Assembly: GCA_016432285.1 (NCBI GenBank) | Contig: CP066682.1 | Span: 352,933-416,932, forward strand | DNA: 64,000 nt | Source: Candidatus Kaiserbacteria bacterium | Lineage (GTDB): Bacteria; Patescibacteriota; Minisyncoccia; Phycocordibacterales; UBA2100 | Direction of reading: 5' to 3' | Part shown: positions 5,901 to 35,355 of the stretch, in pieces | How positions within the stretch are numbered: the first letter of the stretch is position 1 | Layout: each line of letters starts with the position of its first letter | Position numbers and translations under genes: made by a program | Notes under the pieces: model-generated | The model's database searches: none | What the model was told of the DNA's origin: nothing | The model's input: only the letters and a program-made list of their open reading frames with translations

Positions 5901-7781
5901 TCAAACGCTCACGATAACCGGAATGACAATCGGGCGTTTCATAGTGCGCTGCAAGAGGAAGCGCGAGACGCTCTCCGCGAGGTCATCGCGGGCGGCATCG
6001 AGGTCGACGGCGCGCGGATTGCGCATTGAGCCTTCGACGGACTTGCGGATGATAAGGCGCGTCTGATCCATGAGCTCTTTGTTGTCGCGCAGATACACGA
6101 AACCGCGCGAGATGATGTCGGGAGATTTGTGGAGGCGACCGGTACGCCGGTCGACGGTGGCGACGACGACGCAAAAGCCCTCCTGCCCAAGCGCTTTTCG
6201 GTCGCGCATCAGCACATCGGAGAGCTCGGATACGGTGTGGCCCTCGACGACGCGAAGCTCCGAGGGCGCCTTCATGGGAAGCGTCGAGATTTTCTCACCC
6301 TTCACAATCTCGATGATCGAACCGTTGTCGGGGACCACGACGTGGTTTTTCGGTACACCGAGCTCCATGGCAAGGTGCGAGTGTACGCGGAGCATGTAGT
6401 GGTAGCCGTGCACTGGCACGAAGAACTTCGGCTTCACCTGCTTGTGAATCCACACCGCCTCCTCGCGATTGCCGTGGCCGGAGGCGTGCACGTCGCTCGC
6501 GTGATAGGTGATGATGTGCGCTCCCTGGCGCGAGAGGTTGTCCTTCAGCTTTTGCACCGCGCGCTCGTTGCCGGGAATCACAGAGGAGGAGAGCACCACG
6601 GTGTCGGTGGGCTGGAGCCGGATGTGCTTGTGCGATTTGTTGCCGATGCGAGCGAGCGAGGCAAACTCGTCGCCCTGCGCGCCGGTCGCGAGAATCACCA
6701 TCCGCTCCGGCGGGTACTCTCCCATGCTCTCCACGGGCACCACCGTGTCGTCTTTGTATTTGACGAGCCCAAGCTCGCGCGCGATCTCGATGTTGGTGCG
6801 CATGGAGCGGCCGTCGATCACGATCTTCTTGCCGTACTTTTCGGCAAAGGCGATTACGCGGATGAGCCGCTCAAGGTGCGAGGCGAACATCGCGATGATG
6901 AGGCGGCCGGTCGCGTCTTTGATGATGTTTTCGAGCGTGGTGTAGACGTTCTTCTCGGGGATCGAGAAGCCGGGCTGCCAGACGTTGGTCGAGTCCATGA
7001 GAAGGAGGAGCACGTTGCGACTCTTGAAGACGCCGAACTCACGCACTTCCTCTTCGCTCGGCTGCCCGTTGTCGTGGTTGAGCTTGATGTCGCCGGTAAA
7101 AACGACGTCGCCCCATGCGGTCTCGATGATGATTCCCATCGAATCCGGCACGGTGTGCGTAACGCCGAAAAAGCGCACAGTGTGATCGCCGAGTTTGATG
7201 TGCTCATCTTTTTCGACTTCGCGGATCTGTACGGGAGTCGTTTGCGCGAATTCCTCCTGGCGCTTCTTGATCATCATGCCGGTGAGGCGGCGCGTGTAGA
7301 TGGTCGGATTGCCGATGCGGTCGATCACGTAGGGAATACCGCCGATGTGATCGAGGTGACCGTGCGAAATGAGAAGCCCGCGGATCTTGTCGCGGCGCTC
7401 TTCGAGGTAGCCGGTGTTCGGGAGGATGTAATCGATGCCGGGCGTTTCTTCTTCGCGGAACTGGAATCCAGCGTCGAGAATGAAAATGTCGTTGCCGATC
7501 TCGACGGCCGTCATGTTGCGGCCGATTTCTTCGACGCCGCCAAGCGGAATCACGCGGACCGTTTCGGGGCCGATCGGCGGGGGCGTGGCGCCCGCGGGAC
7601 GCGGGCGGCCGCTCGGCGCCTGGTGCTCGACGCGTGTGCGGCGCTGCCGCGGCGGGTGCGCAGAGCGGCCGCGCCCGCCGTAGAATCGGCCGGGACGGTT
7701 GCGCTGCGGTCGCGCATTCGGGGAGGCAGAGCGCGGTCTCCCGTGAGAGCCTGCGCCGGGGTTTTGAGGAGGTGGGTTCAT
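5901..7781 (-). CDS. rnj: ribonuclease J (metallo-beta-lactamase/beta-CASP RNase) with a ~75-aa Arg/Pro/Gly-rich N-terminal extension
   Basis: Contains the HGHLDHIGG motif and beta-CASP region. Its start overlaps the upstream SBP gene stop by 4 nt (ATGA). Confidence 0.85.
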   Translation of the reverse strand: MNPPPQNPGAGSHGRPRSASPNARPQRNRPGRFYGGRGRSAHPPRQRRTRVEHQAPSGRPRPAGATPPPIGPETVRVIPLGGVEEIGRNMTAVEIGNDIFILDAGFQFREEETPGIDYILPNTGYLEERRDKIRGLLISHGHLDHIGGIPYVIDRIGNPTIYTRRLTGMMIKKRQEEFAQTTPVQIREVEKDEHIKLGDHTVRFFGVTHTVPDSMGIIIETAWGDVVFTGDIKLNHDNGQPSEEEVREFGVFKSRNVLLLLMDSTNVWQPGFSIPEKNVYTTLENIIKDATGRLIIAMFASHLERLIRVIAFAEKYGKKIVIDGRSMRTNIEIARELGLVKYKDDTVVPVESMGEYPPERMVILATGAQGDEFASLARIGNKSHKHIRLQPTDTVVLSSSVIPGNERAVQKLKDNLSRQGAHIITYHASDVHASGHGNREEAVWIHKQVKPKFFVPVHGYHYMLRVHSHLAMELGVPKNHVVVPDNGSIIEIVKGEKISTLPMKAPSELRVVEGHTVSELSDVLMRDRKALGQEGFCVVVATVDRRTGRLHKSPDIISRGFVYLRDNKELMDQTRLIIRKSVEGSMRNPRAVDLDAARDDLAESVSRFLLQRTMKRPIVIPVIVSV

Positions 7782-12679: not shown

Positions 12680-15600
12680 TTGAAGCACATGGGAACAACG
12701 ACCCGTGGAATTTTCAGTGTTGCGTTTTTCCTGATTTTCTACGCCTTTTTTCTTGTGCCACCTGCGGTGGCTACAATCGACGACTCCGCCGATCGAACGT
12801 GCGTGCCATTTCTTGCTGTATGCGGATGTGGTGAGACGTTGCAAAACAATACGTGCGTGAAGGTAACTTCCGAAAACACCGGTCTTAAGTCCAACGGTGT
12901 CAACATGAACGGATGCAAGTGCCAGAGCACGGAAAAACCGGCGGGTGGCACTTGCAGAGCGGTACGGGATTGCAAAGGAGAATGGTACGAGCAAAACGGC
13001 AAACGGGTCAACATCGATCCGAACGCCGAGAAGAATTTCGCGGATCTTTTGAAAGGACTTCCAAATCAACCTCCGAGCGGAGGTTCGGGACAGCAAGGGG
13101 GCGCTACACCTGATCTCTCGCCGCCGCAGCAAGCACCTTCGGAAACGAGCGATCATCAGGATTCAGAAAGCATTCAATCAGCGTTTGATCCTCTAACAGG
13201 GCAACCAATCGATCAGGGGAAGTCCGGCGATCAAAAGAATTGGGGCGAACTTCTTTCGGAGGACGAGTGGAATGATTTGGTAAAGCAAGATCAAAATCTG
13301 AGCAATCAATATCCGCCACCGACGCTGGACGAGGCGACACGGCTGCAACCAGGCTCGCCGGATACGCCATTTGATGTAGCGAAAATTGATCCGATCACGG
13401 GAGAGCCGACATACAGTGGTTTTCAAAACGGTCCGGTCCCAAACGATGAAACTGCTTCGGGGGATGAACCACGATCCGAACCGTCGTGGATGGATTCGGT
13501 CCGTGACTATGCCGGGAAAGCGTGGGACGCGATCAAGAATGAATTCGGCGGTGAGGCGGAGGCGGGTCAGGGATGCCCGAAATACAATTGTTGGGGCATC
13601 AAAAACGGCGGCAGCGGATATCAAAAATTCGGATCGGAAGAGGCCGCAGCCACACGATATCTTTCGAACTGGAAGGACTATGTCGACAAGGGATACAACA
13701 CTGTCGACAAGTATCTCAACCGATGGGTTGCCCCGAAGGAAGCCGGGACGGATCCCGAATACTATGGCCAGTATGTAAACGGAGTAAAACAAGCGATTGG
13801 CGGAAATCAGCTTGAGGCGGGCAACGCGGAGCAGGCGATCTCGATGATGAAAGCGCAAGCCCTCTACGAGCAGGGGGTCTCGGGCAGGAGCTTTCCGATC
13901 TCGGATCAGGCGATCGAGGCGGCTGCGCAACGAGTATTCGGATCGAGCTATTCCCGGGGGCCGGTGGAAGATATCGGCCCGGGAGCGGGAAGGAGTTTTG
14001 CCGCCGAGAGCTACGGCGACACGGATCGCTTTGCGCCGACGGAGGCACCCGCATGGGTGGCATCGACTCCCGGATCGACACCAGCTGATCTCGGTCTGCA
14101 ATCTGGGGTCTCTCCGTTTGGGTGGGGCAACAATTTCGACTCATACGGAGAGCCGTCCGATTCGCTCGTCGCGCAAACCGGTCCGGAAGAAACGTACGTA
14201 CCAAACGAGATCGCAAGCGGCGCGTTCGACATCGGTCCGCAGGATGTGCCGCCGCCTGTCCTCACAGACGCGCAAATCGGGGGAGGGTACAACGACCCGG
14301 ATTTCGACCCGTTCGGCGATTTCAATACGCCGGTAAACGAGCCCGCGACAGCGGACGCCGGGGATCAACAGCGCAACGAAGTCGATATTGCCGCCAACGA
14401 CGCCGAACGACAGGCGGAAATTGAGAGAGCACGAAACGAAGTCGACATCGCGGCCAACGATGCGGAGCGGCAGACGGAATTGGCTCGTGCCGAGGAGCGG
14501 CGCAACGAAGTCGATATTGCCGCCAGCGACGACGAGCGACGCCCGCTCCAGCCGAATCGCCAAGCGATCGAGCAGGCGCAGCGGGAGTATGTGGACGACT
14601 ACTTAAAGGAGTACGAGCAACGCCGTGAAGCGCAGCAACAGGCTGTAGCCAATGCGCAGAAGCAGAAGGCGCTCGACACCTTGAACGCGGCCGCGGCCGA
14701 TGTGAAAGATCGTGCCAATTCGATCGCGCAGACGGTCCGCGATCCGCAAAATCTCGACGTCAAGGATCTCGCCGCCGACGTGAAGAGCGCCCCCACCGAG
14801 CTCGCGCGTCTTCGCGCCGCCGCGCGCGAGGCGCTCGATAAGGGAGCGATCTCCAAAGAGCAGTACAACAACGTGATACGCGGGTCGGAAACGCTTCAGG
14901 GGATGGTCAGTGAGTACGCGAAGAATGACAAATATTTCAGCGAAGAATATAAAGGCCAGGTGCAAGGCGCTTTGCAGGGCAGGATTGAAACCGGCGAGAC
15001 GCGGGATCAGCTTGCGAAAGCCGGCAGCGCACTCGCGCAGGTAACCGACGTTCCGAAGACGTACACGCCGCCGCCGCGCACGCTCGGCTCAGACGCGAGC
15101 TCCGGCGTGAGCGATGCGGGGTACAGCCAGTCGCAGTCAGAAGGGTTGATCGACGGCGGCGCACTCGACTCGGGCTTCGGCCTCTCCTCGCAGCAGGTGG
15201 CCTCGCTCTACGACCAGCTCGAATTGGACGCGCAGGCGGATCAGCTGGTCGAGAGTGGGGCTCTCGACTCGGGCTTTGGCCTCACGTCGCCCCAGGTCGC
15301 ATCGCTCTACGACCATCTCGACTTGGAGAATAAAGTGGAGGGGATCGACTGGACGTCGGTTTCTTTCCACAGTCCATATACCGACACCGGTCTTTCGGAG
15401 GACATCAACGAGCAGATCCGCCTCGCGGCCGGTCCGCAGGAGTTCGTACCCGAAGAGCCGTTTGTGGAGGCGCGGCCTGATCGGAGCGGCCCGAACGATC
15501 AGGTTGCGATCAACGACGACAATCAAGTATTGCCGCTTGGTCAAAACAAGGAGGAGCTCGATCTTGAGCGGGGAGAATATGCGAAGTGGGACGACATCGT

Positions 15601-24918: not shown

Positions 24919-24922
24919 ACCC

Positions 24923-25342
24923 GTCTGCGTCAGGCAATCGCCCCGCGTAAGCGGGGAGGAAAGTCCGGACACGCACATTGTTCTTACGATGTAGCAGGGT
25001 AGCGGGTAACGCCCGTCCGAGTAATTCGAGGGATGCGAACAGAGACGCCGAAGCCGAGAGGCGACGGCTCCTACCGAGGTTTAACCTCGGTCGGATGAGG
25101 CCCGCAGCAATGCGGGAGTGCAACGGCAAAAATCCTACCTGCGTGCAAGGTCGTGACCCATGGGATAATGCGCTCCGAATAGTTCGGCTGATCCGGAGAG
25201 ATGAATAAAATCCGATTTTCCGAAATGTGCGGATCGCGTTATCCCACGGGTAGAACCGCTCGAGGTGATCGGCAACGATCATCCCAGATACATGATTGCC
25301 TCGTCCTTCGGGATCAGACAGAATCCGGCTCATGACGCAGAA
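24923..25342 (+). ncRNA. rnpB: RNase P RNA (bacterial type A)
   Basis: Conserved P4 motifs GGAGGAAAGTCCGGAC (5') and ACAGAATCCGGCT (3'). P1 pairs ctgcgtcagg (24925-34) with catgacgcag (25331-40). A terminator follows. Confidence 0.85.
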
Positions 25343-25346
25343 CGAA

Positions 25347-25376
25347 CCCCGCCGCAAGGCGGGGTTTGCTTTTTTA
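25347..25376 (+). terminator. rho-independent terminator after rnpB
   Basis: ccccgccgcaaggcgggg hairpin followed by tttgctttttt. Confidence 0.65.
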
Positions 25377-30405: not shown

Positions 30406-30443
30406 CATGAATATCCGCAACTTCTCAATCATCGCACCCATCG
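30406..30443 (+). pseudogene. degenerate duplicate of the lepA 5' end (pseudo-start MNIRNFSIIAPIV...), part of an att-like direct repeat
   Basis: 30406-30443 aligns to 30577-30614 (real lepA start) with 33/38 identities, including a 19-bp perfect DR aacttctcaatcatcgcac (30419-30437 and 30589-30607). The frame terminates after 55 codons. Confidence 0.6.
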
Positions 30444-30465
30444 TCGCGGCACGCCGCTCCCTGAG

Positions 30466-30555
30466 AACCCACGGTTCTCAGCGGTCGACCTGCGCGCACT
30501 CGGTCGACCTGCTCTCCGTCACGGGAAAACTACAGTTTTCCCGACCCCTTTCGAA
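30466..30555. repeat. copy A of a conserved ~90-nt structured intergenic element (perfect 9-bp stem hairpin cgggaaaac-N4-gttttcccg at 30522-30543)
   Basis: Shares aacccacggttYtc...cacgggaaaacNNNNgttttcccgacccctttcRaa with copy B at 35082-35160. The middle segment differs between copies but is palindromic in both. Confidence 0.7.
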
Positions 30556-30576
30556 CGATGTGAGCGATTTCTGAAT

Positions 30577-32358
30577 ATGCACATCAGAAACTTCTCAATC
30601 ATCGCACACATCGATCATGGCAAGTCGACGCTTGCGGATCGTATGCTCGAAATCACGGGTACGATCGAGCCGCGCCGCATGCAGGAGCAGGTGCTCGATC
30701 GCATGGACTTGGAGCGCGAGCGCGGCATCACGATCAAAATGCAGCCCGTGCGGATGCGGTGGAATCATGAGGGCGCCGATTACATTCTCAATCTTATCGA
30801 CACGCCCGGACACGTTGATTTTGCATACGAAGTCTCGCGAGCGCTCTCCGCGGTCGAGGGCGTGATTCTGCTCGTGGACGCGACGCAGGGCGTGGAGGCA
30901 CAGACGCTCTCCGTGCTTTCGGTGGCAAAGAGCCTCGGCCGCACCATCATTCCGGTCGTGTCGAAGATCGACGCGCCGGCGGCGCGTGTGGAGGAACATG
31001 TGGCGGAGCTTGCGCTCCTTTTGGGGTGCGAGGAGCGCGACGTGCTCCGGAGCTCCGGCAAGACGGGCGAAGGCGTGCCCGCTCTCTTGAACGCGATTGT
31101 CGAGCGGATCGCGCCGCCCGAGAGCACGGGCGAGAAGACCCAGGCCCTCGTCTTCGATTTCGGCTATTCGGATCATCGCGGCGTGATCATCTACATGCGC
31201 GTCTTTGGCGGTTCCGTAAAAAAGGGCGACGAGCTGCGCCTCGCGGCGGCCGACGCCTCGTTCACTGCGCTCGAAGTGGGAGTTTTGATGCCTGAAGAAA
31301 AGCCGTGCGGAGAGTTGCTCGCGGGAGAGATTGGCTACGTCGTTACCGGCATCAAAAAACCGGGCATCGCCTCCGTCGGCGACACGGTTACGGCCGCAAA
31401 AAATGCCGCGCCCCCGTTTTCTGGCTACCAAGCGCCGTCGCCCGTCATCTGGGCTTCCGCGTATCCGGAGTCGCAAGACGATTTGCCGCTCCTACGGCAG
31501 TCGCTCGAGCGCCTGCGGCTCTCGGATTCGTCGCTTTCGTATGAAGAAGAATCTTCGGGCGTGATGGGCAAGGGATTCCGCTGCGGCTTCCTTGGCATGC
31601 TGCACCTCGAGATCGTTATCGAGCGGCTCCGCCGGGAGTTTGGTCTCTCACTCGTCGTCACGCAACCGACGACCGTCTACGAAATCACACGCACCAACGG
31701 CAAGGTGGAGGAAATCTACGCGCCCGCGCGTTTTCCCGACGACGGAACGGTGGCGAAAGTGCGGGAAGTCTGGGCGAAGGTATTCGTGATCTCGCCGCCA
31801 GATTATATCGGTGGTGTGTCGCAGCTTTTGTATGAGCATGAGGCGAAGGTGGGGGAGACGGAAACGATGCCCGACGGCAAGATGCAGCTTTCGGCCGAGA
31901 TGCCGCTGCGGGAGCTCATGCGGGGATTCTTCGATCGACTCAAGAGCATCTCATCCGGATTCGCCTCGCTCTCGTACGAGCTTCAGGGATTGCGCGAGGC
32001 CGACGTCACGCGGCTCGACGTACTGGTGGCGGAAGAGCTCGTCCCGGCTTTTGCGCGCATCGTGAGCCGCCGGCGACTCCAGACGGAGGCCGAGGCCATG
32101 GTGGAAAGACTCGAAAAGCTTTTGCCGCGGCAGCTCTTCGAGCTGAAGATTCAGGCGAAGGTAGCCGGGAGGATCATCGCCTCACGTAGAAAATCAGCGA
32201 TGCGCAAAGACGTGACGGGCTATCTCTATGGCGGCGACGTGACGCGAAAGATGAAACTGCTCGAAAAACAAAAACGCGGCAAAAAGAAAATGCTCGCGCG
32301 CGGCAAGGTGGATATACCCCACGATGTTTTCCTAAAGGTGGTGCGGGAGACCAACTAG
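30577..32358 (+). CDS. lepA: elongation factor 4 (LepA)
   Basis: N-terminus IRNFSIIAHIDHGKSTLADR, G-domain motifs and the LepA C-terminal domain. Length 593 aa. Confidence 0.9.
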   Translation: MHIRNFSIIAHIDHGKSTLADRMLEITGTIEPRRMQEQVLDRMDLERERGITIKMQPVRMRWNHEGADYILNLIDTPGHVDFAYEVSRALSAVEGVILLVDATQGVEAQTLSVLSVAKSLGRTIIPVVSKIDAPAARVEEHVAELALLLGCEERDVLRSSGKTGEGVPALLNAIVERIAPPESTGEKTQALVFDFGYSDHRGVIIYMRVFGGSVKKGDELRLAAADASFTALEVGVLMPEEKPCGELLAGEIGYVVTGIKKPGIASVGDTVTAAKNAAPPFSGYQAPSPVIWASAYPESQDDLPLLRQSLERLRLSDSSLSYEEESSGVMGKGFRCGFLGMLHLEIVIERLRREFGLSLVVTQPTTVYEITRTNGKVEEIYAPARFPDDGTVAKVREVWAKVFVISPPDYIGGVSQLLYEHEAKVGETETMPDGKMQLSAEMPLRELMRGFFDRLKSISSGFASLSYELQGLREADVTRLDVLVAEELVPAFARIVSRRRLQTEAEAMVERLEKLLPRQLFELKIQAKVAGRIIASRRKSAMRKDVTGYLYGGDVTRKMKLLEKQKRGKKKMLARGKVDIPHDVFLKVVRETN

Positions 32359-32903: not shown

Positions 32904-32974
32904 GCGGGATTAGTTTAGTGGTAGAACGGCTGCTTCCCAAGCAGCAGATACGGGTTCGATTCCCGTATCCCGCA
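32904..32974 (+). tRNA. tRNA-Gly (anticodon CCC); CCA not encoded
   Basis: Acceptor GCGGGAT/ATCCCGC, anticodon stem GCTGC/GCAGC with loop TTCCCAA, T-arm CGGGTTCGATTCCCG. Confidence 0.85.
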
Positions 32975-33010
32975 CACGAGCGAGCGCTTGGCCGATTTCC
33001 CGTACTCGCA

Positions 33011-33364
33011 CTACAGGTACTTTTTTCCGTATGTCCGCATTTCGTCCACCACCTTCCGGAGGGCCCTGCCTTGCGAAGTGAGGCGATACTCCACGTAAGG
33101 TGGGAGGCGCTTCAGCGCAGTGCGAGCCACGAGGCCGCGCCTTTCGAGCCGGCGGAGCGTCTTGGTGAGCGTGCGGGTACTCATACCGAGCGATTCGTCG
33201 AGATGTCCAAAACGGCGCGGGCCGTCCAAAAGATCGCGCACGACGAGGAGGGAGCAGGCGTCCCCGAGGAGATCGGCCACCCGGGCGACGGGGCAGTCGG
33301 CGCAGAGGTCTTCGCGTTGCTTTTTGGTGCGCAACATCAGACCACGGTAGCACGAGTTATCCAC
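33011..33364 (-). CDS. HxlR-family (MarR-like winged-helix) transcriptional regulator
   Basis: CPVARVADLLGDACSLLVVRDLLDGPRRFGHLDESLGMSTRTLTKTLRRLERRGLV is a typical HxlR helix-turn-helix. The start may be the internal ATG 27 nt downstream. Confidence 0.8.
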   Translation of the reverse strand: MDNSCYRGLMLRTKKQREDLCADCPVARVADLLGDACSLLVVRDLLDGPRRFGHLDESLGMSTRTLTKTLRRLERRGLVARTALKRLPPYVEYRLTSQGRALRKVVDEMRTYGKKYL

Positions 33365-33424
33365 TTTACAAAGTAAAGCGACTATCTATACTGAGTCTCT
33401 ACCAACAAACTTTACTAAGTAAAG
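33364..33424. promoter_or_regulatory. two palindromic operator boxes CTTTAC-N3-GTAAAG (33364-33378 and 33410-33424) in the divergent hxlR/LUD promoter region
   Basis: Both boxes are perfect 6+6 inverted repeats with identical half-sites, 46 bp apart. A TATACT -10-like box lies between them (33388-33393). Confidence 0.55.
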
Positions 33425-33467
33425 CAACTGAAATCGAGCGGCGTCAGCAGAAGCGCCACATCAACGT

Positions 33468-34085
33468 ATGGAATATACGAAACTTGCAACTGAAGAGATC
33501 ATCGAGAAGGCAGTGCACGAGCTCGAAGCGAGGCGTTTCAAGACCGCCCGTGTGCAGAATCGCGCCGAAGCGCTCGAATACATCAAGAAGACTATTCCCG
33601 CAGGTGCGTCGGTCATGAACGGTTCGTCGGTGACGCTCGAGGAGATCGGCTTTGTCGATTACCTCAAAGCTGGCGGGCACCCGTGGAGAAATCTGCACGA
33701 GGAAATTCTTAATGAGCCCGACAAAGACAAGCGCGCGCAGGCGCGCATGCATGCGGTCGTTTCCGATTACTATCTCGGCAGCGTGCATGCGCTTACGGAG
33801 GGTGGTGAGATGGTGATCGGCTCCAACACCGGAAGCCAACAGCCGCACCTCTCGTACACCTCACAAAATCTCATCTTGGTCGTCGGCACACAAAAGATCG
33901 TACCGGACCTGCCGGCGGCCTTGGAGCGGCTCGAAAAGCACGTCATCCCCCTCGAAGACGAGCACATGAAGGGGCTGTACGGCTCTGGCACGCAGCACAA
34001 CAAGACGCTGATTCTGTACGGGGAGAGCAGCATGATGAAGCGGAATGCCACCGTGCTCCTCGTAGAGGAAAAACTCGGTTTCTAG
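33468..34085 (+). CDS. LUD-domain protein (LutC/YkgG, DUF162-like lactate-utilisation family)
   Basis: Conserved LUD-domain pattern (..G.S.T..E.G.....L......H...YY.GS.HA.TE.G..V..S..GS.....). It is divergent from hxlR. Confidence 0.65.
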   Translation: MEYTKLATEEIIEKAVHELEARRFKTARVQNRAEALEYIKKTIPAGASVMNGSSVTLEEIGFVDYLKAGGHPWRNLHEEILNEPDKDKRAQARMHAVVSDYYLGSVHALTEGGEMVIGSNTGSQQPHLSYTSQNLILVVGTQKIVPDLPAALERLEKHVIPLEDEHMKGLYGSGTQHNKTLILYGESSMMKRNATVLLVEEKLGF

Positions 34086-34124
34086 GCGATATGGTATTAT
34101 CAGGTATCACTAAAAAATAATCGT

Positions 34125-34367
34125 ATGGCTACAAAACAAAACGTAACTATTTACTCGACCCCGACCTGCCACTTCTGCCACATGGCGAAGGACTTTTTTG
34201 CCGCCAACAAGATTCAGTTCACCGACTACAACGTTGCGACCGATCTCGAAAAGCGCAAAGAGATGGTAGAAAAGAGCGGTCAGATGGGCGTGCCCGTCAT
34301 CACGATCGGCAAAGAGACCATCGTCGGCTACGACGAGGATCGCCTCAAGGAGCTGCTCGCAGTCTAG
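34125..34367 (+). CDS. glutaredoxin-like protein (NrdH/YruB type, CxxC = CHFC)
   Basis: 80 aa. IYSTPTCHFCHMAKDFF...GVPVITIGKETIVGYDEDRLKELL is a classic Grx fold. Confidence 0.85.
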   Translation: MATKQNVTIYSTPTCHFCHMAKDFFAANKIQFTDYNVATDLEKRKEMVEKSGQMGVPVITIGKETIVGYDEDRLKELLAV

Positions 34368-34384
34368 TGCCCTCGGCAGGAATC
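34366..34384. repeat. 19-bp perfect direct repeat agtgccctcggcaggaatc duplicating the 3' end of tRNA-Arg (second copy 34525-34543, inside the tRNA)
   Basis: Exact 19/19 match 159 bp apart. The intervening DNA also holds an inverted partial copy of the tRNA T-arm (34470-34485, ttcgattcctgc). Confidence 0.7.
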
Positions 34385-34526
34385 TCCCTCGACTCTCGGC
34401 TCGCCGTCGCTCGCCTCGGTCTGGGCACCGCCTCGCTGCTCGGCCTGCTGGCCTCGCATCGCTCCGGCGTTCGATTCCTGCACGCGCCATGCAGCGGCAC
34501 GGCGCTCTCGATCACTTGCTTCGCAG

Positions 34527-34598
34527 TGCCCTCGGCAGGAATCGAACCCACATCTCTCCCTTAGGACGGGATAGCTCTATCCATTGAGCTACGAGGGC
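34527..34598 (-). tRNA. tRNA-Arg (anticodon CCT); CCA not encoded
   Basis: Reverse complement folds as acceptor GCCCTCG/CGAGGGC, D-arm GCTCAATGGATAGAGC, anticodon loop GTCCTAA, T-loop TTCGATT. Confidence 0.8.
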
Positions 34599-34632
34599 GA
34601 GGCCGCAACTATAGCATGCTAAGATTTCAGGC

Positions 34633-34923
34633 ATGGATCCGAGTCAGGAAACGCTGAGAGAGATTCTTCGTCTCACACAGGAGAACAACCGCATGCTCCA
34701 CAAAATGCGCCGCAGCGCGTTTTGGGGCGGGATCCTGAAGCTCCTTCTGTACGCCGCGCTCCTCGGAATTCCGCTGTGGCTCTACATCACGTACCTTGGC
34801 CCCATGATGCAGGAGGTCATACAAACGTATCGCGACATCCAGGGCACCGGCGCCAACGTCTCGGCGCAGTTCACTGATTTTCAGGGAATGCTTCAGCAGT
34901 TCAAGGATAATTTCTCGCAGTAA
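34633..34923 (+). CDS. small (96 aa) hypothetical membrane protein
   Basis: Helical N-terminus plus one TM (ILKLLLYAALLGIPLWLYITYL). No family recognised. Confidence 0.4.
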   Translation: MDPSQETLREILRLTQENNRMLHKMRRSAFWGGILKLLLYAALLGIPLWLYITYLGPMMQEVIQTYRDIQGTGANVSAQFTDFQGMLQQFKDNFSQ

Positions 34924-34953
34924 AACAGGTCGACTTCCAATAAAAAGATCTGG

Positions 34954-34959
34954 TATAGT
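34954..34959 (+). promoter_or_regulatory. extended -10 box TGgTATAGT upstream of tRNA-Phe
   Basis: atctggTATAGTacc, ~40 nt upstream of the tRNA. Confidence 0.4.
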
Positions 34960-34999
34960 ACCGCAATCGCCCGGAGAGGTTCGTTTCTGGGCGTCGCTT

Positions 35000-35073
35000 G
35001 CCCAGATAGCTCAGGTAGTAGAGCATTCCCCTGAAGAGGGAAGGGTCGTCAGTGCAAATCTGACTCTGGGCAC
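35000..35073 (+). tRNA. tRNA-Phe (anticodon GAA)
   Basis: Acceptor GCCCAGA/TCTGGGC, D-arm GCTCAGGTAGTAGAGC, anticodon loop CTGAAGA, T-arm GTCAGTGCAAATCTGAC, discriminator A. Confidence 0.85.
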
Positions 35074-35081
35074 CTCTTGGA

Positions 35082-35160
35082 AACCCACGGTTTTCCAACG
35101 CTCGCTTCGCGAGCTGTCTTCCTCCACGGGAAAACAATTGTTTTCCCGACCCCTTTCAAA
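35082..35160. repeat. copy B of the conserved structured element (hairpin cgggaaaac-aatt-gttttcccg at 35127-35148), 8 nt downstream of the tRNA-Phe 3' end
   Basis: Aligns with copy A (30466-30555). Flanks and hairpin stems are identical. The central segment holds a different palindrome (gctcgcttcgcgagc). Confidence 0.7.
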
Positions 35161-35296
35161 GCCCAGAAGAGCCGTGCCTGCGCACGGCTCGTGTCGGATT
35201 TGCAAGCCGGAGCCATGTCGCCTTGGCGACAGGCGAGGCCGGGCAGGAGCCACTTAACGAGCGCAGCGAGTTTAGTGAGCTGTCGCCAAATCTGAC

Positions 35297-35315
35297 TCTG
35301 GGCACACAAAAAAAT
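35297..35315. repeat. 19-bp perfect direct repeat caaatctgactctgggcac duplicating the tRNA-Phe 3' end (first copy 35055-35073)
   Basis: Exact 19/19 match 242 bp downstream. This is an att-like duplication bracketing element copy B. Confidence 0.7.
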
Positions 35316-35355
35316 CCGGCCTGTCAGTCGACAGGCCGGTGCACACTTCGTTTGT

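Follow-up and report, generated by a model that had tools for sequence, protein, structure and literature searches.

A miniature, gene-end-targeting element with a conserved multi-hairpin core in Patescibacteria

The window analysed here is a 64,000-nt stretch of a Candidatus Kaiserbacteria genome (GenBank assembly GCA_016432285.1, contig CP066682.1, positions 352,933 to 416,932 of the forward strand). It carries two copies of a small structured element on its plus strand, one at the start of lepA (copy A) and one at the 3' end of a tRNA-Phe gene (copy B). The neighbours of both copies are housekeeping genes, encoding MurJ, LepA, a LUD-domain protein, HisRS and an exonuclease, and no open reading frame (ORF) is contained in the elements. 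An initial annotation, made by a model from the DNA letters and ORF translations, had placed a gene-end duplication beside each copy, and both duplications are present: at copy A, 30407-30443 and 30577-30613 (37 nt) are 86% identical, and at copy B, 35055-35073 and 35287-35305 match at 19/19 positions. The two gene-end segments flanking a copy are referred to below as direct repeats 1 and 2 (DR1 and DR2). The element had also been called always intergenic, which does not describe copy A, situated between a displaced and the working start of lepA.

The strings that were initially reported as common to both copies all occur at those positions on the plus strand. Among them, the 9-bp hairpin CGGGAAAAC-N4-GTTTTCCCG (H3) has exactly two matches in the 64-kb window, at 30522-30543 (loop TACA) and 35127-35148 (loop AATT), against 0.02 expected from shuffled sequence, and the 18-mer GTTTTCCCGACCCCTTTC, which runs from the stem into the following tail, occurs twice against 0.05 expected. 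The left-end 14-mer AACCCACGGTTYTC also occurs twice, against 0.78 expected, and is not significant alone. A covariance model (R1), run on the window without filters, recovers only two canonical copies (30466-30555 and 35082-35160); a degenerate third unit lies at 34367-34525.

Each copy is predicted to fold as a closed, four-way multi-branch structure consisting of an outer stem, a left hairpin (H1), a variable hairpin (H2), and H3 followed by a pyrimidine tail. The outer stem is formed by the neighbouring gene end and its own reverse complement, a 3' arm that begins just after the tail (30556-30568 against 30431-30443 in copy A; 35161-35171 against the end of tRNA-Phe in copy B). Folded as a single strand with this stem and DNA parameters, copies A and B give z-scores of -4.9 and -4.2. 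The 3' arm of copy A matches the working lepA copy at 12/13 positions and DR1 at 11/13. Thus the initially described element of about 90 nt is a real core within a larger unit, and that description overlooked the inverted arm derived from the target, the tail as a mirror repeat, and the fact that the shared left-end sequence is itself hairpin H1. Likewise, the middles of the two copies do differ and are palindromic, both being hairpins, but the presumed direct repeat in copy A is an 8-bp stem, because its repeated 8-mer GGTCGACC (30484-30491 and 30502-30509) is self-complementary.

Since relatives have empty sites at both positions, the two window copies are insertions. In a set of 80 metagenomic lepA loci, with LepA at 45-82% identity, only one (L122; loci outside the window carry labels of this form) has the element upstream of lepA. 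In the relative L120 (LepA 82% identical), a promoter-like ctgttaggat leads straight into lepA. Its homologue in the window is the stretch preceding 30407, which identifies 30407-30443 as the original lepA start and the start at 30577 as the added one. The tRNA-Phe gene is uninterrupted in five relatives. In each case the target gene is left intact, with one gene-end copy joined to the gene body and the other beyond the element.

Other small insertions were observed at the same gene. In L121, L125, L128 and L133, hairpin insertions of another type (CCCCG...hairpin...CGGGGCA(A/G)GCG) lie at the lepA start, about 100 nt upstream of the match start, with a 6-36 nt duplication of the start-codon region but lacking an antisense arm. 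Mini-insertions of several families thus seem to be concentrated at the lepA 5' end. The cluster lepA - tRNA-Gly(ccc) - tRNA-Arg(cct) - tRNA-Phe(gaa) (window 32904-35074) is syntenic with L121, L123, L128 and L134-L136, and the orientation of individual tRNAs in it flips between relatives; the inverted repeats of the units might contribute to such local inversions.

A scan for an exact 21-base H3 pattern extends the family to at least 119 loci, and the target statistics that follow refer to 125 copies. The record titles shown are nearly all of Patescibacteria metagenome-assembled genomes, and the hosts among the matches listed include Saccharibacteria, Parcubacteria/Paceibacterota, Jorgensen-, Kaiser-, Taylor-, Lipton-, Colwell-, Moranii- and Berkelbacteria, and WS2, and a few of the listed bins bear other labels. 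One match, L027, was set aside as a chance palindrome without a tail. Many targets are tRNA genes: among the matches listed, the tail of 68/125 copies points at the 3' end of an oppositely oriented tRNA, with 17 amino-acid types represented, and copy B is the only one of the 125 with an upstream tRNA on its own strand. At least 12 copies sit at the 5' ends of lepA, fusA or typA, in the first codons just past the AHID codons of the P-loop. The sites occupied, whether tRNA T-loops or P-loop codons of translational GTPases, are highly conserved ones close to a gene end. Further targets among the listed matches are the 5' ends of murD-like, glycosyltransferase and dinB-like genes, the 3' end of rpmG, and tRNA 5' ends. 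A single subfamily from one host lineage is found at both tRNA and fusA sites. We conclude that this is an undescribed, gene-end-targeting miniature element spread across Patescibacteria lineages.

The order of parts was the same at every inspected locus: gene-end copy, core, antisense arm, spacer and intact gene end. Units measure about 130-250 bp, with an arm of 13-20 nt, and the core comprises an optional small hairpin H0, H1, whose top (AACC/GGTT) is conserved, a variable hairpin that is likewise optional, a linker of consensus YTTCCNCCA, H3 and the tail. At the H0 position, L122, L007, L063 and L015 also have hairpins, of other sequences. The spacer often holds a terminator-like hairpin at tRNA targets, and a stop codon plus restart at 5'-end targets. 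In nearly all copies where it was found, the second gene-end copy begins within about 90 nt of the tail, which leaves no room for a gene or cargo. Tandem units occur at single tRNAs in L056 and L103, and in the L056 pair H3 and tail differ together.

Some loci have additional features around the unit. The element flanks in L021, L024, L032, L061, L087, L109 and L008 are crowded with other hairpin repeats (GGAGG...CCTCC types, ggcgactNNaaggtcgcc) and have a common conserved flank, aaaggctaaagccttttt acgggtactccctcc. In L010, a near-identical pair of units (443-467 and 7342-7366, both on the minus strand) is separated by 6.9 kb at a tRNA-Asn gene. The island between them encodes GmrSD/HNH, an EcoRI-like methyltransferase, an SDH-type protease, AbiEii/AbiEi and two familyless proteins; no recombinase or integrase was recognised in this island, and its 334-aa and 170-aa proteins had no match in Pfam, PADLOC or PDB.

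The structure of the element is under selection, as seen from compensatory changes in H1 and from covariation between H3 and the tail; substitutions of the first kind were a check that the initial annotation had proposed. For H1, we used a model-fitted alignment of 77 copies with 500 shuffles and, as a control, pairing partners slid by 1-3 columns. Cells in which both sides of a pair had changed numbered 85, compared with 26 in the shuffles (0/500), and the slid controls collapsed; one column alone holds G-C, A-U, C-G and U-A pairs. On the plus strand, G-T/T-G pairs outnumber A-C/C-A by 33 to 5, which suggests folding of the plus strand.

The tail mirrors the H3 pyrimidine strand instead of complementing it, and a motif of purine-pyrimidine hairpin plus pyrimidine mirror tail has 138 matches versus 3 in shuffles. 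In divergent copies near the loci, found by model, changes in H3 are followed by changes in the tail (G to C, A to T) across three strands. The canonical purine strand GGGAAAA is accompanied by the tail AC-CCCTTT-C; GGGGAAA (G4A3) by AC-CCCCTT-C in L074 and the second L011 copy; GGGGAA (G4A2) by AC-CCCCT-C in the second L114 copy and L123; and GGAGGGGA by AC-CCTCCCCT in the second L095 copy (8/8). The weak second copies in L055 and L103 are partial exceptions. The perfect conservation initially ascribed to the 9-bp stem, with only its loop varying, therefore applies to the two window copies, but not to the wider family, where stem and tail vary together; the apparent invariance of H3 is partly a matter of ascertainment, because the loci were fetched with the exact H3 pattern. 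The order of purine strand, loop, pyrimidine strand, linker and pyrimidine strand is, in established triplex chemistry, the layout of a parallel, pyrimidine-motif intramolecular triplex, and with the mirror strand and its covariation it makes a parallel triple helix of H3 and tail probable. A triplex of the purine motif would suit the complementary strand just as well.

Other explanations of these parts were examined and rejected. The TTCC linker does not covary in the H3 variants and so is not taken to pair with the purine strand of H3, and the likeness to the 16S 3' end (AACCUGCGGUU, ACCUCCUUUC) was judged coincidental because the tail follows the sequence of H3. An intrinsic terminator does not fit, as H3 is followed by ACCCCTTTC without a direct T run and the tail covaries with the stem. 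For the H3 loop and the nucleotides that follow the tail, the pairing signal is weak and its register ambiguous (38% versus 27% for L3-X1).

The duplications themselves are mosaic. Their lengths vary (19, 37, 52-71 and up to 85 nt) and the two copies are not identical: across loci, DR1 and DR2 agree until about 7-9 nt before the core, after which the core-side copy has 2-3 changes that are constant within a lineage, namely ATCGAAC to ATCTCAC at the T-loop centre, CAC to CCC at the GTPase genes, and TTGATG to ATAATG. The outer stem contains 2-3 mismatches, 4-9 nt from the core. In the window, 5/6 differences between DR1 and DR2 of copy A fall within the first 12 of 37 nt, where the start of DR1 resembles the relative with the empty site (clustering p about 0.02, by our own binomial estimate). 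When the reverse complement of the arm is compared with both gene-end copies, the intact target is the better match in 46 loci and DR1 in 3 (p about 1e-8), with means of 11.3/13 and 9.5/13, respectively, and in 36/59 loci the arm is complementary to the intact target at 12/13 positions or better. Judging from these sequences, the pattern fits what would be expected of a reciprocal exchange between a target and an element equipped with a target copy of its own, at an exchange point a fixed short distance from the core; a duplication produced by staggered cuts would fit poorly.

Further features of the window are included in Table 1. The third unit, at tRNA-Arg(cct), has the architecture of the family around an 85-nt interior that lacks H1, H3 and tail and shows no significant structure on the plus strand, and the real tRNA-Arg(cct) follows directly (34526-34598, minus strand). 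It is probably a decayed copy or belongs to another family; a genuine member of the family is present in L123 at the orthologous tRNA-Arg. Nested in the antisense arm of copy B, at 35169-35190, is a hairpin with a perfect 9-bp stem, GAGCCGTGC-CTGC-GCACGGCTC, and short inserts of a similar kind (e.g., CGCTTCGCT) break the 5' arms of several tRNA-type copies, such as L025, L093 and L117. Elsewhere in the window, a bacterial RNase P RNA at 24922-25348 (plus strand) scores only 117 bits (threshold 100) over 427 nt compared with a 367-position model, and may be divergent. Tandem imperfect repeats at 14372-14548 and 15132-15327 (plus strand; 60-99 nt, 78-81% identical) are unrelated to the element and probably represent coding repeats of a large ORF.

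Table 1. Parts of the two canonical copies and of the third unit, in window coordinates.
Feature	Position	Strand	Basis
Copy A DR1, displaced original lepA start (ATGAAT...CCCATCG)	30407-30443	+	Repeat comparison; homology to L120
Copy A 5' arm of outer stem, last 13 nt of DR1	30431-30443	+	
Copy A left end TC, then small hairpin H0 GCGGC-AC-GCCGC (30446-30457)	30444-30457	+	Fold
Copy A H1 CTGAGAACC-CAC-GGTTCTCAG	30461-30481	+	Fold; lower stem covaries family-wide
Copy A variable hairpin H2 GGTCGACC...GGTCGACC	30484-30509	+	Fold
Copy A pyrimidine-rich linker tgctctccgtca; family consensus YTTCCNCCA	30510-30521	+	Alignment
Copy A H3 CGGGAAAAC-TACA-GTTTTCCCG, homopurine/homopyrimidine strands	30522-30543	+	Fold; pattern count
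Copy A tail ACCCCTTTC, mirror repeat of H3 pyrimidine strand; proposed Hoogsteen third strand	30544-30552	+	
Copy A 3' arm CGATGTGAGCGAT, antisense copy of codons 9-13 of lepA	30556-30568	+	
Copy A spacer ttctgaat, with TGA (30572-30574) of 55-codon ORF 30407-30574	30569-30576	+	
Copy A DR2, start of working lepA gene (30577-32358)	30577-30613	+	
Copy B DR1, tRNA-Phe T-loop to 3' end (gene 35000-35074); its end is the 5' arm	35055-35073	+	
Copy B H1 TTGGAAACC-CAC-GGTTTTCCAA	35077-35098	+	Fold
Copy B variable hairpin H2 GCTCGC-TTC-GCGAGC	35100-35114	+	Fold
Copy B H3 CGGGAAAAC-AATT-GTTTTCCCG	35127-35148	+	Pattern count
Copy B tail ACCCCTTTC	35149-35157	+	
Copy B 3' arm GCCCAGA(AGAG) + GTCGGATTTGCA, reverse complement of tRNA-Phe-like 3' part	35161-35204	+	
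Copy B spacer	35205-35286	+	
Copy B DR2, second tRNA-Phe 3' segment, then terminator-like hairpin (about 35308-35340)	35287-35305	+	
Third unit at tRNA-Arg(cct): DR1 34367-34383, interior 34384-34468, 3' arm GTTCGATTCCTGC 34469-34481, spacer 34482-34525	34367-34525	+	

Searches of databases and the literature returned no known counterpart. As copies number far more than two and no known repeat or RNA family accounts for them, neither refuting outcome named in the initial annotation applies. At the gathering threshold of Rfam release 15, the window contains RNase P and four tRNAs only, and E-value scans of copy A and five strong-member loci returned tRNAs and weak, sub-threshold, off-target matches only. 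Exact and relaxed H3-tail patterns had 0 matches in IMG/VR (2.9 million viral contigs), and a BLAST search of copy B against phage and plasmid collections found no match. The searchable literature, queried also with the sequence string, yielded nothing relevant to the element; its structures go unmentioned in a 2026 paper about group I introns of tRNA genes in Patescibacteria. An exact-protein lookup of the window LepA returned no record.

Membership in known classes was considered one class at a time. The initial annotation had excluded attC-like GTTRRRY cores, correctly: the GTPase-type arms (CCCATCG / CGATGTG in copy A) have no RYYYAAC...GTTRRRY core sites, and the tRNA-type arms contain GTTCGAA / TTCGAAC solely as copied T-loop sequence. 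The copies are also solitary at gene ends, with housekeeping neighbours in the window and no array, integrase or attI, unlike integron cassettes. Miniature inverted-repeat transposable elements (MITEs) of DDE origin were rejected, as there are no shared terminal inverted repeats, the arms differ per target and match the local gene, and the duplications (19 up to 85 nt) are mosaic and not of a fixed short length. The direct repeats do span the 3' part of the tRNA, starting at the T-loop or the anticodon loop, as at tRNA islands; an integrase-encoding island or prophage was nevertheless rejected, there being no room for an integrase or cargo between the repeats in nearly all copies where a second gene-end copy was found, and no recognisable recombinase in the 6.9-kb case of L010. 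The targets are tRNA and protein-gene ends and not dif, which excludes CTX-type integrative mobile elements exploiting Xer (IMEX), and palindrome-associated transposable elements (PATEs) of IS200/IS605 and repetitive extragenic palindromic sequences (REPs) with their REP-associated tyrosine transposases (RAYTs) are excluded by the long duplications and the lack of a fixed short junction motif. No reverse transcriptase gene lies near either window copy, as would be needed for a retron msr-msd. The hammerhead-like CUGAGA of copy A lies in the covarying H1 stem and is absent elsewhere, which speaks against a self-cleaving ribozyme; the differences between duplications are not adenine-specific, as they would be in a diversity-generating retroelement; and the TTGAAA and AATACT in H1 are only 12 nt apart, too close for an internal sigma-70 promoter.

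The reading that we favour, at a probability of about 0.55, is that the family consists of protein-less, non-autonomous, site-specific integrative elements, with a folded single strand as the recombination substrate and an enzyme acting in trans. The element would move as or through a single-stranded folded form, in which the arm would pair with the element's own target copy, giving a duplex that mimics the target except for a bubble of 2-3 nt, located 4-9 nt from the core. A trans-supplied recombinase might then exchange strands about 7-9 nt from the core, inside the duplicated segment, and this exchange would account for the hybrid duplications; in this way the unit of core, arm, spacer and gene-end copy could recombine with a chromosomal gene end. 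The folded attC sites of integrons and attP sites of CTX phage would be the closest working parallel. Of the possibilities raised in the initial annotation, a mobile element or recombination site is the one supported by the empty sites, the mosaic duplications, the tandem units, the number of loci with their many different targets, and the selection on structure.

Several points weigh against this reading. No recombinase or other associated protein was found, no excised form was seen, and the searches of viral contigs, phages and plasmids gave no copy and hence no vehicle for horizontal spread. It would be unusual for one sequence-specific tyrosine or serine recombinase to act on more than 20 target sequences, and a double-stranded circle of 170 bp would be strained; the single-stranded intermediate is assumed. 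Replication-coupled single-strand mechanisms often show an orientation bias relative to GC skew, and the element shows none (58 versus 47 loci). H3 was fixed by the exact search pattern, the covariation of H3 with the tail rests on about five variant classes, and adjacent C+*G-C triples are weak at neutral pH.

The placement of the arm directly 3' of a conserved scaffold invites a second reading, namely that the element is a module in which the triple helix serves as scaffold, the 13-20 nt arm selects the site by pairing, and a trans-acting or host-wide enzyme performs the chemistry; essential genes would survive because the module brings a replacement gene end. We regard this as doubtful, and somewhat more so in the explicit form of programmable, nucleic-acid-guided insertion, where the arm is a guide to an opened or single-stranded target, the core is an enzyme scaffold, and retargeting proceeds by a new arm plus gene-end copy. 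The near-perfect complementarity between arm and target at many unrelated targets (36/59 loci at 12/13 or better) would be expected of a guide, although a stem that mimics an att site on highly conserved targets gives the same complementarity. The use of tRNA and fusA sites by one host-lineage subfamily, and an intact copy that remains a target and so fits tandem insertions, also suit guided insertion. No associated protein is known for it, however, and the mosaic duplications and the gene-end copy beside the arm are not explained by guidance alone.

The mosaic duplications would agree with crossovers in short homology, and the element could also be a cassette, selfish or neutral, that relies for its spread only on DNA uptake followed by homologous recombination or single-strand annealing, with no dedicated enzyme. 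In such a cassette the gene-end copy and gene body would be the homology arms, and the core would loop out compactly or stall replication forks and so provoke repair. Saccharibacteria do take up and recombine DNA; the unrelated hairpin insertions with duplicated gene starts at the same lepA site (L121, L125, L128 and L133), and the degenerate core at tRNA-Arg that keeps the architecture, are compatible with such a process. What it leaves unexplained is a core of about 70 nt kept in sequence and structure across phyla, the covariation of tail and H3 least of all, and the lineage-constant mismatches beside the core. Moreover, RecA would have very short left homologies, of 19-37 nt, to work with, and transformation tends to remove insertions, not to add them. 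We hold this cassette to be as unlikely as guided insertion.

A role as a cis-acting or small structured RNA, either a leader coupling an upstream ORF to the translation of lepA or fusA or a tRNA-like minihelix made by read-through, with the duplications as a by-product, appears improbable. At 5'-end targets the element shares its transcript with the gene, and in those loci of this type that were checked an upstream ORF crosses the core, stopping 2-27 nt before the real start; in the window, the ORF at 30407-30574 (plus strand, 55 codons) runs from the displaced lepA start through the element to a TGA 2 nt before the working ATG. This arrangement suggests termination-reinitiation coupling but is not statistically distinctive, and the read-through is a weak signal because other frames through the core are about as stop-free. 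The G-U-type bias of H1 on the plus strand (33 versus 5) and the minus strand at tRNA sites, which would fold as an acceptor/T-stem minihelix, may also speak for an RNA. The reading is weakened because orientation differs by target class, being sense at 5' ends and antisense and convergent at the 68 tRNA sites of the matches listed, and because terminator-like hairpins flank most tRNA-type copies, the core lying between them at several tRNA loci inspected; for these reasons the free-standing small RNA of the initial annotation is not favoured. In addition, no Rfam family matches, and some close relatives have the element while others lack it, which speaks against a regulator that is essential.

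Finally, that the units are decayed attL/attR junctions or cis-mobilisable relics of larger islands or prophages at tRNA and gene-end att sites is highly improbable: partial tRNA duplications are the classic scar of integrase insertion, and the L010 pair flanks a 6.9-kb defence island (GmrSD/HNH, EcoRI-like methylase, AbiE), but the second gene-end copy, where found, nearly always begins no more than about 90 nt past the tail, remnants decaying independently would not all retain one and the same structured core of 70 nt, even the L010 island has no recognisable integrase, and none of the 2.9 million viral contigs carries a copy.

Patescibacteria genomes are tiny and gene-dense and have few recognised mobile elements, and the element spans many of their lineages while missing from Rfam and the searchable literature. 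Its insertion into essential genes (tRNAs, EF-G, LepA and BipA) leaves an intact end joined to the gene body. The sequence implies a natural intramolecular triple helix kept by three-strand covariation, which is rare in bacterial DNA or RNA. If the arm directs insertion, the element would be a compact, retargetable scaffold for DNA insertion and a handle on the genetics of organisms that are hard to manipulate; if the guided reading is true, the smallest bacterial genomes would have a native system of nucleic-acid-guided DNA insertion that forms a class of its own. In practical terms, the units create pseudo gene starts, partial tRNAs and inverted repeats, which can mislead gene callers and tRNA finders.

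Compared with known systems, the element most resembles integron attC and CTX-phage attP(+), the latter used by XerCD, in that the stem of an imperfect hairpin resembles a duplex site, with mismatches or a bubble close to where exchange is presumed to occur, and that structure is kept more than the stem sequence, pointing to a single-stranded folded state. It differs from them in lacking RYYYAAC/GTTRRRY cores (except by chance in T-loops), an integron integrase and a cassette array, in targeting many gene ends and not attI or dif, and in enclosing within its hairpin a conserved multi-hairpin core with a triplex-type tail and carrying a replacement gene end. With tRNA-targeting integrative elements and islands (tyrosine integrases, T-loop class) and their integrase-less derivatives, the cis-mobilizable elements (CIMEs), it shares the direct repeat from T-loop to tRNA 3' end, the intact gene with a duplicate fragment beside the element, tandem accretion and the use of protein-gene ends, whereas it has only 130-250 bp, no integrase or cargo, an inverted target copy by the core, and one core family for more than 20 targets.

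Like MITEs, REPs and bacterial interspersed mosaic elements (BIMEs), including the PATEs derived from IS200/IS605, it is small, non-coding, hairpin-rich, dispersed and non-autonomous. By contrast, its arms are derived from the target and are not constant terminal inverted repeats, it has few copies per genome, and its duplications, 19-85 nt in typical units, are of unfixed length and reach the gene end or beyond. The proposed H3-tail helix follows Py*Pu-Py triplexes (H-DNA, designed purine-loop-pyrimidine-loop-pyrimidine oligonucleotides and RNA major-groove triple helices) in the order of purine strand, loop, Watson-Crick pyrimidine strand, short linker and mirror pyrimidine strand, and in the covariation of G with C+ and A with T(U). 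It is distinct from known triplexes in its natural setting within a bacterial mobile element, in having 3-4 adjacent C+*G-C triples, and in being deduced from covariation only. As in guided transposition (IS200/IS605 internal guides, IS110/IS1111 bridge/seek RNAs and TnpB omega-RNA), a scaffold is followed by a variable, target-complementary segment that is retargetable over evolutionary time; the element differs in having no transposase or nuclease gene in or adjoining it, in its long gene-end duplications, and in a candidate guide that pairs with adjacent sequence on the same strand; the resemblance is in layout.

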